From the sequence record MN445185.1: a DNA stretch of 64,000 nucleotides; one strand, given 5' to 3'. The stretch is from Escherichia phage vB_EcoM_EC001. Within the stretch, counting starts at the first letter, position 1, and each line of letters begins with the position of its first letter. Below the pieces are notes generated by a model. The model was not told the origin of the DNA. It searched no databases and was given only the letters and a program-made list of their open reading frames with translations. The position numbers and the translations under genes are program-made. Shown one piece after another: positions 1 to 24,461 of the stretch.

Positions 1-984
1 TATTAAGATCTTAAAACGCGTGCGGGCGCGCGCGTGATCCTTATTAAGAGATCGTGATCGGACGGAAGACCGAGATCGGGTACCCTGTGTATTTTTTACG
101 TGGTTTCCCTATCGTGTGTTCAGACCACCACTCGATGTCCAAAAACCCATAGCTTCGGTGGTCGCCTCCCTGGTCGGTAGACTCTGACAAGTCGACCCAC
201 AACACCAACCCGTCCGGGGACGGATTTTTATTCCAACGACAAGCTCCACGAAAATCCCCGCAGAGGGACTCACTGCTGTGTGACTCACCGGCTCCTGGAC
301 GCCTACGCCTCGAGCCGGTAATTTTTTGATTACGTGAGTTTGTTGTTATATGCGAATAGCGATTGACCGCGCCAATGGTCCAATCACTTTTAAACCCTGC
401 ACGCTAGGGCTCCAAGTCCTGGGACTGATACCCAGGACGCTTTTTCGAAAATACCTACCGTGGTGTCTTCGACAAAGCGCAATCTAACACTGCGTGATTT
501 ATTATGTTCTGGAAAACTTTCGCCGTGGAACAGAACCGGTGAGCGTCGGCGGGGATTCCGACAATCACCACCCATTCAGGTACTCGGTAGATAACCGACC
601 TGCCGACGGTGCTACGTCGGGCGTAGTTCGGTTTGCGAGAGTGTCGAGAAAGTCGACTGCGCACCCATGACAAAATCCGAGTTGACCGTGGCAGCGCCAG
701 AGGACTGGGCAGCGGAGAGACGTCGTTGAACTTACCTCCGATAGTTATCGCTGATTCCGCTCTGGCGTCGGGCCAAAACTGATTCGAATTCGGCGTTGCG
801 TCGAAAAGGGGTCTGCGTGTAGAACCGCAGACTTGGGGGATAACTCCAAAGTGGGGTGATCGGATCTTGACGGCTCGGAACAGACGAGAGGGGTGGGTAC
901 TCCCGTTGTGAAACGCCAGTACCTGGCTGATTAAAATTTACAGATTCTGCGTGAGGTATGATAAACCAAACGGAGAATTAAACC

Positions 985-1560
985 ATGAACTTGTATCGCA
1001 TCGGGTTTTACCGGAACGAGGTACCAGAATCGGTTTTGGTTGTCTTAGCCGAAAACGAGGAGCAGGCCAAATCCTTCTGGCCGGTTAGCGCAGAGCGTAC
1101 AGCGGTTGCGTGCTGCTACGACGGTCCAGTTGCCGCAACGGATGTCGCTGCAGGCGTAGTCCTGAAGATGGGCCGATGGGAAGATTACTCCCATCCCGGT
1201 TTGGAGTTTGTTTCCGAACCTGCCAGACATTCCTGGGAATTTCCCTCAGGCAACACCGAGACGTATTTCGGATTTCAGGTTAAACAACCTTCGACGCTCA
1301 AACTGTACCTGGTGTACAGCGACGCCGCTACCGAAGACTACGTCGATTCCGGAATCATCGTCGGGGCAACAACCCCTGCTGCGGCATTCGCACATTGGGA
1401 CGGTGATAAACCCGGAATCGTTTCGGTCTGTGAGCTACCACTTGAAGCCGGTTTGGTTACGAACATCAAGTGTGAGCAAGGCCAGGAGCTGACTTGGATC
1501 CGCCAGGATTACCTGACGGAAACGACATTCGAGTACACACCGAGGAAGGTGACCCAATGA
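985..1560 (+). CDS. hypothetical protein (MNLY N-terminal family)
   Basis: 191-aa ORF; stop overlaps next start (ATGA). N-terminal about 35 aa resembles ORF 2283..2525 (MNLY...V.VV.A..EEQA). Confidence 0.5.
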   Translation: MNLYRIGFYRNEVPESVLVVLAENEEQAKSFWPVSAERTAVACCYDGPVAATDVAAGVVLKMGRWEDYSHPGLEFVSEPARHSWEFPSGNTETYFGFQVKQPSTLKLYLVYSDAATEDYVDSGIIVGATTPAAAFAHWDGDKPGIVSVCELPLEAGLVTNIKCEQGQELTWIRQDYLTETTFEYTPRKVTQ

Positions 1561-2048
1561 CGACGATAGCGTTCGACGGAAAAGTCTTAGCTGCTGACGG
1601 TCAGCTGACCCGCGGGTCGAATATCTGCAACCTGAACACCCAGAAGTTATTCATCTGCCCTTCTGACGAGGAATGGTGGATTACTGGTGAACGGATTGTG
1701 GCGTTCGGAGTAAGCGGTGACATCACAGGACAGTTGGCCCTGCTGGAAACGGTCCGCTTGAGACCCGGCTACAAGGGGTTAACACAAAGCTCGCAGTTAC
1801 CTGCGAAGATGGATTTTACTTTCCTGATGCTTTTGGCCTCAGGAAAAGCGATAGTCGGCGGAAAACGTGAAGACGACGTGACGTTGTGGTGGAGTGAAGC
1901 CACACCACCTCTGGCAACCGGAAGCGGTTACGAGTATGCGTTGGGTGCGATGAAGATGGGCGCGAATGCGGTTCGTGCTGTTGAGATTGCGTCCGAATGC
2001 GATATCTACACCGGTGGTGAGATTAGCACTTACGAACTACGGAGGTGA
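1557..2048 (+). CDS. HslV-like Ntn-hydrolase (proteasome-type threonine peptidase)
   Basis: Internal ATG with AGGAAGG RBS. Product starts M-TTIAFDGKVLAADGQ (Thr right after Met as in HslV TTIV..GDGQ); Lys about 30 residues in; GSGYEYALGA resembles the HslV GSGG..A motif. Confidence 0.6.
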   Translation: MTTIAFDGKVLAADGQLTRGSNICNLNTQKLFICPSDEEWWITGERIVAFGVSGDITGQLALLETVRLRPGYKGLTQSSQLPAKMDFTFLMLLASGKAIVGGKREDDVTLWWSEATPPLATGSGYEYALGAMKMGANAVRAVEIASECDIYTGGEISTYELRR

Positions 2049-2140
2049 ATCATGCGGGAGTCAGAAGCACGCAAGCTTGACCCCATCAATCGCCTGCGAT
2101 AACGGGGTAGCGCATCCGTATAAACACGTTCAAGAATTCT

Positions 2141-2216
2141 AGGAAAGTGACGCAATTGGTAGCGTACCGGTCTCCAAAACCGGCTGTTTAGAGTTCGAGT
2201 CTCTACTTTCCTGCCA
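2141..2216 (+). tRNA. tRNA-Trp (anticodon CCA), CCA end encoded
   Basis: Hand-folded 76-nt cloverleaf: acceptor aggaaag/ctttcct 7 bp, D stem acgc/gcgt, anticodon stem ccggt/accgg with loop ctCCAaa, T stem tagag/ctcta, T loop ttcgagt, discriminator g, CCA. Anticodon and T arms closely match E. coli tRNA-Trp. Confidence 0.8.
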
Positions 2217-2282
2217 CATTTAGCCAACAAGGCCATGATTCAAAGCAGAATGACACCGAATGTCTAACTGCGGAGAATAATC

Positions 2283-2525
2283 ATGAACTTGTATTTGCTA
2301 GAACGAACTGACGATATCGGGTATGATGAATTTGATTCCATAATCGTGGCGGCTCCTACGGAGCAAGCCGCGTGTGCAATTCCTCCCGACCGTGGTCATT
2401 GGATGGACTGCCGCTGGTTACCGAAAGAGCGCTGGGATGAAGGGCTTACCCTGACCGTTACTCTTATCGGTACTACGCACTATCCTGCTGGGACCGTCGT
2501 TCATGAATCGTTCAATGCTGGCTAA
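2283..2525 (+). CDS. hypothetical small protein (MNLY N-terminal family)
   Basis: 80-aa ORF starting MNLYLLERTDD; N-terminus similar to ORF 985..1560; followed by hairpin gtgggcttcggcccac. Confidence 0.4.
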   Translation: MNLYLLERTDDIGYDEFDSIIVAAPTEQAACAIPPDRGHWMDCRWLPKERWDEGLTLTVTLIGTTHYPAGTVVHESFNAG

Positions 2526-3300
2526 ACAGTGGGCTTCGGCCCACTAACCCTATTCGAGCCGTGATACTTACTCAGATTGTGCGGGTTGATGTCCCGCATG
2601 AGCCGGTAGCAGCTCAGACCTACGGTAGACCAATAAATCCGTAGCAGCCAGGTACACAAAGCACCAGGTCGCTTGTACAGGATGCTGGGTATCTGACCGG
2701 TCATAACCTCATTCGATACGAGACACGTTTATGCATGAAATACTCCAGTACATCAGGATGTTGATTTCCAACATCCGGTTCTGGGTATTCAGTCATGTTT
2801 GGTTTACAGGCGATGGGTTTTCCCGTAAGGGCCCCACTTACAGACTGGCGTCTCCACGACAACCGTCCCTAGGGGACAGGCAAGCACCGGCCCATTAAGC
2901 CGCTACGCTACGCCTGTAAATCCACAATCTGATAACCGAATGGGATTGAGTTCCCAGTGTTAGGGTGACTGTGTGTCACCGTAGGCGCGGTACCTCATAC
3001 GGCCGGTACGCCACGAATGTACGTGATAGCGGGTGGTGCTTGGAGACGCTAAGACCTGACCTTACGGACAGGCTCAGAAGAAGAAGTCCATCACCTGTAT
3101 TCAGAAATGAATTTAGGTTAATTATTGGAAGTGGCGAAATCACTTACGTGATAACTTAGTAGTATGCAACGAACAATACCAGAGTGACTTTACGAGGTTA
3201 CTGTGGTATATGTCGGTGCGCCGGGCAACGTGTTGCCGCAGATAAGCCCGAGGGAGCTGAGTGCACTAACACACGCCGGGATGCACCGGCACCTTACAAC

Positions 3301-3373
3301 GGCTTTGTAGCTCAGGTAGGTAGAGCAGCCTCTTCGAGGAAGGTCGCTGGTTCGAGACCGGTCAAAGCAAGAG
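3301..3373 (+). tRNA. tRNA-like element, possibly a degenerate tRNA or pseudogene (anticodon arm does not fold canonically)
   Basis: Canonical D arm gtagctcaggtaggtagagc and T arm gctgg-ttcgaga-ccggt, acceptor 6 of 7 bp, but only 19 nt between D and T arms so no standard anticodon stem-loop. Confidence 0.35.
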
Positions 3374-3828
3374 CAGCGAAGTTAGAGGAATTAACACCCG
3401 ACTCATAATCGGATATTTCGACGGTTCGAATCCCTGCCACTTGCTCGCCCTATTTGTGTTATCCTTATCCCGAAGGCATTCGAAATAAGACGCGTATCCA
3501 CACACGGGTCAAGGATAACACGAACCACTTCCGCGGTCACCGTGTCCATTGCCGCCTACCTGCATGGGCTGTCCTCCGACACGGTGACTTCGGGCCAAAT
3601 TACAGACCAGGGCCGTTTGGGTTTTTCTTACGCATCCGTCCAGAGCCACCTCGAGCCCTGGTTTGTTCTCCCTTTTCTGTTCCTAGTTAGCCAACTAAAT
3701 CAATTAAGCCTGGTGCGTTGCCCTGGGAACAGAAAAACTTATTCGGTTACACACCGAACCCACCCACGAGGGATATGTCGTGGACTACCAATAGAAGCAG
3801 CAATAGTAGAAGTAAGAAGGAAAGCAAC

Positions 3829-9896: not shown

Positions 9897-10381
9897 GCGT
9901 TCTGTTTGATGTGGCGGATATTGCGAACCAATATAGCGCGACTCGGTTTTACGAGCATGTTCGTGAAGCGGCATTGCGTGTACTGGAAGCCAGTAACCTG
10001 GAGATCGATGAAACACAGATACGTGATTTTTATCAACGTTTTGCGTTTGCATATATCATCGGTGTGAAAACTCGTGACCCTTCGACGATGGTTGATTTGT
10101 TACAGGAAGACACGCTTGAACCTCTGGGCAATTGGGAGTTGGTGTCCGATGGTCTGTCCGTTGACCAGTTCGCTAAGGAAACGTCTGTCGATACGACGTT
10201 TCTGGCAGCACAAGGTTCGCCCGAACAACATCAAGCCGCCTTCGGCGCTGCGGTAAGTTTGCTGGCCGAAGAGTTAACAAACTTAACTGGTTTTGCTGGA
10301 CTGATAGAGTCGCTGTATCCGGGGCGATATCAAACGTATGTAGGTGATAGTTTTAACGATGTGGTGTTAATCTGCGAATGA
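9893..10381 (+). CDS. hypothetical protein
   Basis: 162-aa ORF, start overlaps previous stop (ATGA). Confidence 0.55.
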   Translation: MSVLFDVADIANQYSATRFYEHVREAALRVLEASNLEIDETQIRDFYQRFAFAYIIGVKTRDPSTMVDLLQEDTLEPLGNWELVSDGLSVDQFAKETSVDTTFLAAQGSPEQHQAAFGAAVSLLAEELTNLTGFAGLIESLYPGRYQTYVGDSFNDVVLICE

Positions 10382-24396: not shown

Positions 24397-24461
24397 GTTA
24401 AAATTTACGTTAGTGGGACATCATGTGTGAACCACTAGACTGCTTTTCCGAAAAGGATGAA

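Follow-up and report, generated by a model that had tools for sequence, protein, structure and literature searches.

Two small plus-strand open reading frames (ORFs) of Escherichia phage vB_EcoM_EC001 are the subject of this analysis, which covers a 64,000-nucleotide window (sequence record MN445185.1). ORF A (985..1560; 191 amino acids (aa), pI 4.6) and ORF B (2283..2525; 80 aa, pI 4.45) flank an HslV-like Ntn-peptidase gene (1557..2048, product MTTIAFDG...) and a tRNA-Trp (CCA) gene (2141..2216), giving the plus-strand order ORF A, HslV-like gene, tRNA-Trp, ORF B. This arrangement, proposed in an initial annotation made without database searches, is confirmed by the ORF list, a phrog_1040 match for the peptidase, ARAGORN, and the Rfam tRNA model (63.6 bits). 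Escherichia phage vB_EcoM_Lh1B annotates ORF A and ORF B each as a coding sequence (CDS). The initial annotation also regarded the two ORFs as paralogs built on a duplicated small domain. On balance, the comparisons described below favor a different relationship, in which ORF A and ORF B are distant homologs that share an N-terminal strand-strand-helix module and ORF A is a cassette gene that varies between strains.

Bases 800-2700 of the window are 98.1% identical to Lh1B, at identical coordinates, and 92-96% identical to the Salmonella phages JN03, SPFM series, and SPLA series and to Proteus phage 7. Sequence identity assigns the phage to Seoulvirus (SPN3US-like jumbo phages, ~240 kb), and the window therefore corresponds to the leftmost 64 kb of a genome of this type. 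In the records of SPFM1, 5-10, 12, 14, 15, and 20 (LR5359xx), the region is matched solely as 22-30 short pieces in which ORF A and ORF B are frameshifted. This fragmentation suggests indel-rich, low-quality assemblies, not real variation.

ORF B is a canonical member of phrog_5444 (also VOG10251), called here the MNLYL...SFNAG family. Its residues 1-80 match profile positions 1-82 of 82 (E=5.9e-36), and it scores 98.8 bits against a family profile built without it. A search with ORF B recovers 64 homologs, and profile searching expands the family to at least 4,330 clusters (E≤0.001), with members in jumbo, N4-like, and T4-like phages and in actinophages. Multiple copies occur in several jumbo phages, with three in Aeromonas phage D3 and two each in Phabio, Noxifer, and 201phi2-1. 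Family members are ~80 aa long (range 67-130) and acidic (median pI 4.4). Both termini are strikingly constant: 112 of 165 members start with exactly MNLYL and 159 end with exactly SFNAG, while the MNLYR start found in ORF A is used by 5. The family is further defined by a YDxYDS loop between strands 1 and 2, a VVAAxxExxA strand-helix, and an ...IG...SFNAG-COOH end. ORF B has the MNLYL start, the SFNAG C-terminus, and every near-invariant residue of the family (Y4, Y14, D15, D18, S19, A24, E27, A30, P35, W45, G63, and S76-F77-N78-A79-G80). Scans of Pfam, NCBIfam, and PADLOC return no entry for the family and nothing above threshold for either ORF, and the literature library searched contains nothing relevant on the family (phrog_5444/VOG10251, SFNAG/MNLYL) or on SPN3US gp264.

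Structure prediction, proposed alongside the initial annotation as a check on the shared domain, is informative for ORF B. The AlphaFold2 model (pLDDT 88, pTM 0.79) predicts a compact four-stranded alpha/beta domain in the order strand, strand, helix, helix, strand, strand, with strands at residues 2-8, 16-24, 57-64, and 72-78 and helices at 27-31 and 48-53. No solved structural relative of the family was found in the PDB. Structure matches of ORF B in BFVD are limited to uncharacterised proteins, encoded by jumbo phages, by the N4-like phage IME11, and in two giant-virus metagenome bins. Conservation of polar and aromatic residues together with both termini suggests a defined binding pocket and not a purely structural role. 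The most likely mode of action of the family is recognition of a partner or ligand in a putative pocket composed of Y4, Y14, D15, D18, S19, E27, W45, N78, and the C-terminal carboxylate. In metagenomic phages, the genes around family members are small, unannotated, and arranged in arrays close to replication or T4-like early genes, and no single neighbor is constant. In the N4-like Escherichia phage IME11, the member gp60 (392-631) lies between genes annotated as 'RNAP1 protein' and 'RNA polymerase'.

ORF A has a far narrower distribution than ORF B. Its alleles occur in 27 phage records, all Seoulvirus-type except for one weak match (29% identity) in a phage contig from human feces, and an exhaustive phmmer search of 1.8 billion representative proteins finds no distant homologs, only close Seoulvirus alleles. 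Homolog searching thus places ORF B in a very large family and leaves ORF A a lineage-restricted accessory gene. Apparent matches of ORF A to the repeat proteins P0074 and P0075 are spurious, with E-values that sum matches to the internal repeats of those proteins. Substitution patterns nonetheless indicate that ORF A is a real coding gene under purifying selection, as its length is conserved and dN/dS is 0.24-0.26 in comparisons with the alleles of SPFM16 and Proteus phage 7.

The history of ORF A is mosaic. Differences between alleles, counted per 30-nt window, concentrate in a central segment (codons 47-108; 1123..1308) where dS is ≈1.6 and dN/dS is 0.16, against a dS of 0.09-0.12 in the flanks (codons 1-46 and 109-191) and 0.05-0.2 in the adjoining HslV-like gene. 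Saturated dS combined with a dN/dS of 0.16 points to recombinational replacement, indicating segmental exchange with a distant allele, not diversifying selection. A 107-aa variant of ORF A encoded on a 1.6-kb Logan contig (P0004) lacks residues 74-157, so that residues 1-73 are fused to 158-191. This variant may reflect a naturally occurring internal deletion or faulty assembly.

The features that first drew the two ORFs together are present in both. MNLY is encoded in each by the same 12-mer, ATGAACTTGTAT, which has only these two occurrences in the window, and the hydrophobic run followed by EEQA in ORF A (VLVVLAENEEQA) corresponds to SIIVAAPTEQA in ORF B, where the motif reads TEQA. Within ORF A, MNLYR occupies residues 1-5 and VVLAENEEQAKSFWP residues 19-33, near the positions of the family's VVAAxxExxAxxxxP strand-helix (21-35).

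Profile comparisons extend this likeness beyond the shared motifs. When the family is represented by alignments of 58 or 166 sequences, hhalign aligns residues 1-36 of ORF A (module 1, 985..1092, MNLYRIGFYRNEVPESVLVVLAENEEQAKSFWPVSA) with family positions 1-39 (P=4e-6 to 3e-5, probability 73-87%). For the module 1 match itself, P is ≈4e-6 to 9e-6 (probability 78-87%). The first part of ORF A, residues 1-103, gives a score of 35.7 (P=4e-6, probability 87%). HMMER with the ORF B family profile reports two in-register domain matches, at ORF A residues 2-37 and 103-140. Compared with single family members, and judged against a null built from family-wide maxima, the best pairwise scores reach p=0.005 for the first half of ORF A and p=0.02 for the second.

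A number of results weigh against common ancestry. In direct Smith-Waterman alignment, ORF A residues 1-103 score 22 against ORF B, below the shuffled mean of 24.5, and MNLY alone is aligned; the pairwise comparison of the two N-termini, suggested with the initial annotation, thus stays within background. Full-length ORF A fares slightly better (38 vs 27.4±4.7 shuffled; z=2.25, p≈0.03), and here the best local alignment pairs the ORF B N-terminus with internal residues 104-138 of ORF A (LKLYLVYSDAATEDYVDSGIIVGATTPAAAFAHW; z=2.9, p≈0.01), not with the ORF A N-terminus. The HMMER matches reach 10.4-13.0 bits, for E-values of 0.004-0.03 within the window and 0.012-0.09 over the genome. ORF A, whole or as halves, has no match in PHROGs, and phrog_5444 is not hit at E≤10. 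The confident alignment is ~36 residues long, of which 4 are the shared MNLY. ORF A terminates in ...EYTPRKVTQ and lacks the IG...SFNAG end of the family. Evidence for the second motif copy is marginal (p≈0.01-0.04, with several tests tried). The AlphaFold2 model of ORF A, computed from a 3-sequence alignment, is unusable (pLDDT 40) and was left out of the fold comparison, so the relationship lacks structural confirmation. Finally, hhalign P-values are poorly calibrated for a query of three near-identical sequences, and empirical nulls were therefore relied on.

These nulls bear directly on the possibility that ORF A is an unrelated orphan whose N-terminus carries, by chance or convergence, MNLY and a generic strand-helix motif, in which a hydrophobic run leads into a helix rich in E and A, as in many small alpha/beta proteins. 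The low pairwise and HMMER scores fit such an orphan, as does the lack of PHROG, Pfam, or distant relatives. A generic motif is also suggested by DUF3906 (PF13046), whose N-terminus gives matches to ORF A residues 1-28 and to 2 of 58 family members (E=0.075, 13.6 bits) that lie far under the 25-bit gathering threshold and constitute a lead, not membership. Composition may contribute as well, since A/V-rich sequence can produce scores such as that of the out-of-register match between ORF A residues 31-69 and IME11 gp60 (p=0.004). Yet column shuffling of the hhalign test yields scores of 10.9±2.3 (maximum 26.0), and shuffling with MNLY held fixed yields 19.8±2.1 (maximum 31.4); in neither case do any of 300 shuffles reach 35.7. 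Real sequence gives the same answer. ORF A is the top non-self match among 359 six-frame segments of the window (32.0 vs 21.5 for the next best), and none of 1,131 segments from the 176 kb of Lh1B outside the window, used as a proxy for the remainder of this phage's genome, scores above 21.2. ORF A is therefore the sole outlier among ~1,490 segments, ~11 score units above the next. Both motifs occur in family order at nearly family spacing, and a second in-register match lies inside the same ORF. Coincidence is nonetheless a serious rival and the strongest of the alternatives, given the short confident alignment, the missing structural confirmation, and the many tests run, while being a good deal less probable than distant homology. 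At the profile level the N-terminal likeness of ORF A to the ORF B family appears clearly above background. The shared small domain of the initial annotation is thus supported at the profile level for ORF A residues 1-36, as a window- and genome-wide outlier, and does not extend to a family C-terminus. No further paralogs were found in the window or in the rest of the Lh1B genome; a gene at 10378 whose product starts with MKLY is unrelated.

Distant homology differs from the duplicated gene pair implied by the word paralogs. Recent intragenomic duplication of ORF B, or of its 5' part, would account for the identical first 12 nt (ATGAACTTGTAT), the similar ribosome-binding context, and the 0.7 kb that separates the two ORFs. 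It sits poorly with the remaining evidence: DNA likeness is restricted to the ribosome-binding site and those 12 nt, and protein identity over the aligned stretch is ~25%. The sequence CGGAGAAT, which a pattern search finds upstream of both ORFs, belongs in front of ORF A to the insertion slot and not to a duplicated gene, because SPN3US has CGGAGAAT without ORF A. Searches by tblastn with either ORF find one place per genome only, the domain's C-terminal half is missing from ORF A, and the two ORFs differ in distribution. Young paralogy is therefore highly improbable, and the pair is not supported as a product of gene duplication. With the link limited to the N-terminal module, ORF A and ORF B would be distant homologs and not recent duplicates.

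A weaker second copy of the motif, missed by the initial annotation, lies inside ORF A at residues 104-140 (module 2, 1294..1404, LKLYLVYSDAATEDYVDSGIIVGATTPAAAFAHWDGD). It emerges from Smith-Waterman alignment, from the HMMER match at 103-140, and from hhalign (P=0.012-0.039), and it aligns in register with IME11 gp60 (p=0.001 in a single test). At the YDxYDS loop, module 1 has NEVPES, in which only the S is kept, and module 2 has EDYVDS, in which D15, D18, and S19 are kept and Y14 is not. The case for this second copy is suggestive. Under the distant-homology model, the first ~36 residues of ORF A would be a divergent copy of the N-terminal half of the ORF B family, and residues 104-140 would probably, with less certainty, be another. 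The remainder of ORF A, including the site of the C-terminal hallmark, is not recognisably related to the family: hhalign in -glob mode gives no support for matching the C-terminal halves of either ORF A unit to strands 3 and 4 or to the SFNAG end. Loss of hallmarks is not unprecedented, since Erwinia phage AH06 gp116 (ending ...CSYEDF) and Tenacibaculum phage pT24 gp288 (ending ...SFLNG) are divergent family members without YDxYDS or SFNAG.

An N-terminal likeness that stops after ~36-40 residues in each half of ORF A could also arise from a chimera, in which illegitimate recombination fused one or two 5' fragments of an ORF B-like gene to unrelated sequence. The mosaic segment (dS 1.6 vs ~0.1 in its flanks) demonstrates segmental exchange within ORF A, the insertion slot accepts different genes in different strains, and the P0004 variant provides an example of internal deletion. 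No donor is found for the non-homologous parts, however, and the data do not separate a chimera from divergence of complete domains. In the low-confidence ORF A model, solely the order of secondary structure elements in residues 1-62 and 105-151 resembles the ORF B fold, and the order in residues 1-62 (strand, strand, helix, strand, strand) is closer to a whole ORF B-type domain than to a fragment. A chimeric origin is judged unlikely.

The genomic setting of ORF A is consistent with a cassette gene. ORF A is absent from SPN3US, SaP7, and SPLA3 by a gene-precise indel; in SPN3US, the upstream sequence ...AACGGAGAATTAAATC joins the start of the HslV-like gene, ATGACCACG, directly. In Erwinia phage pEa_SNUABM_29, an unrelated 56-aa ORF fills the same position. 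The ribosome-binding sequence upstream (CGGAGAATTAAACC, 971..984 in the window, located by the SPN3US alignment, the pEa_SNUABM_29 comparison, and a pattern search) is common to the window, SPN3US, and pEa_SNUABM_29, in which the compared slot regions span 971-1560, 1170-1190, and 3120-3315, respectively. Both occupants overlap the start of the HslV-like gene through an ATGA stop/start, and the last codons of each contain a Shine-Dalgarno sequence for that gene, which in the 3' end of ORF A is GAGGAAGG. These alignments identify a swap slot directly 5' of the HslV-like gene. ORF A would thus use the ribosome-binding site of the slot and be translationally coupled to the HslV-like gene through ATGA. 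The indel itself may reflect either gain or loss of ORF A.

ORF A, the HslV-like gene, tRNA-Trp, and ORF B probably form one transcription unit. A promoter and terminator scan finds none between them, and a hairpin (2528..2545, plus strand) begins 3 nt past the ORF B stop, with a perfect 7-bp stem, a UUCG tetraloop, and a folding energy of -15 kcal/mol (z=-2.5). Co-transcription is inferred from these two observations, with the hairpin as the proposed end of the unit. No T-tract follows the hairpin, and the intrinsic-terminator scan did not call it; it may mark the transcript 3' end or stabilise it. The hairpin overlaps a minus-strand ORF of 60 aa (2522..2704) that is a CDS in Lh1B and unannotated in SPN3US.

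Early promoters of jumbo phages are phage-specific AT-rich motifs of ~10 nt (PMC7598289). In the window, the AT-rich 11-mer TTAAAATTTAC occurs on the plus strand at 931-941 and 24398-24408, each time just 5' of a plus-strand gene start, and its core TAAAATTTAC is retained 5' of the slot in pEa_SNUABM_29. The 11-mer could be a phage promoter element; as a promoter call it was set aside, there being two copies only and no enrichment at one mismatch.

The HslV-like gene matches the phrog_1040 'peptidase HslV family' (E=1.5e-37), has a sub-threshold match to Pfam Proteasome (E=0.088), and reaches 16 bits against the NCBIfam HslV models, which have cut-offs of 137-158; a proteasome-beta match in NCBIfam is likewise sub-threshold. 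In a test for a Thr nucleophile after Met, its N-terminus reads MTTIAF. 'HslV-like' is thus a fair description on profile evidence, and HslV equivalog would go beyond it. The gene is strongly conserved (dN/dS ≤0.05).

Across genera, ORF B is conserved in a syntenic position. Seoulvirus and Erskinevirus keep the order HslV-like gene, tRNA-Trp, ORF B and are the only genera in which HslV is next to ORF B. More broadly, a gene of the ORF B family sits beside tRNA genes in five jumbo-phage genera, often 200-350 nt 5' of tRNA-Asn. Such neighborhoods occur in OBP (3001-3641), Sureiya (3001-3625), Aeromonas phage D3 (401-926), Kosakonia phage Kc263 (401-874), and Asesino (612-1082), and in Petsuvirus, Ludhianavirus, and Branisovskavirus an ORF B-like gene lies just 5' of tRNA-Asn. 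The four non-jumbo metagenomic phage contexts have no tRNA near the family gene. A functional link of ORF B to the HslV-like gene or the tRNAs was considered and rejected, as the neighborhoods are patchy and were read as inherited synteny, not as functional evidence. Adjacency to tRNA genes is probably inherited synteny, though the family may have a tRNA-related role.

Downstream of the locus, positions 3301-3370 (plus strand) contain a tRNA-like sequence that scores 33.6 bits with the Rfam tRNA model (gathering threshold 29), has a truncated anticodon loop, and is passed over by ARAGORN; its equivalent in SPN3US is labeled 'tRNA-OTHER'. A second tRNA-like 3' half follows at ~3373-3446. The 3301-3446 stretch probably comprises decayed remnants of a tRNA cluster that is intact in the Erskinevirus phage Asesino.

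ORF A and ORF B are probably dispensable accessory proteins that interact with the host. Dispensability is suggested because SPN3US lacks ORF A, both proteins are small and acidic, and both genes are located at an accessory, tRNA-rich genome end. A bolder extension would make the ORF B family a new class of phage effectors, for example binders of a small molecule or nucleotide signal, or inhibitors of a universally conserved host factor, that would work through the putative pocket, with ORF A a two-module derivative of altered specificity that occupies a hot-swap slot and is co-translated with the HslV-like peptidase. This scenario is a long shot, offered as speculation from sequence comparisons.

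As a finding, the link between the two ORFs is ordinary remote homology among phage accessory proteins and of little importance in itself. Its value lies in giving family context to a strain-variable Seoulvirus orphan, which probably derives from a widespread family of small proteins, and in showing how the reuse of modules in swappable slots with translational coupling gives rise to accessory genes. The analysis also outlines the ORF B family, which is very large, strictly conserved at both termini, foldable by prediction, and not represented in Pfam, NCBIfam, or the PDB. Because it spans unrelated phages, it would be a reasonable choice for functional screens (e.g., for anti-defence or host takeover).

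The solved folds nearest to the ORF B model are NE1680 (PDB 2hfq) and other small alpha/beta proteins. ORF A resembles phrog_5444 in its MNLY start and its VVxAExEExAxxxxP strand-helix; it differs in length (191 aa vs ~80), in its two copies of the N-terminal motif, and in having no IG...SFNAG C-terminus. Its setting invites comparison with strain-variable accessory cassettes such as 'morons' and plasticity-slot genes. ORF A differs from the classical moron in that the scan finds no promoter or terminator of its own. It shares with these cassettes gene-precise presence or absence, a resident ribosome-binding site, ATGA coupling, and a Shine-Dalgarno sequence for the next gene, and its slot, like theirs, holds a different small gene in a related phage.

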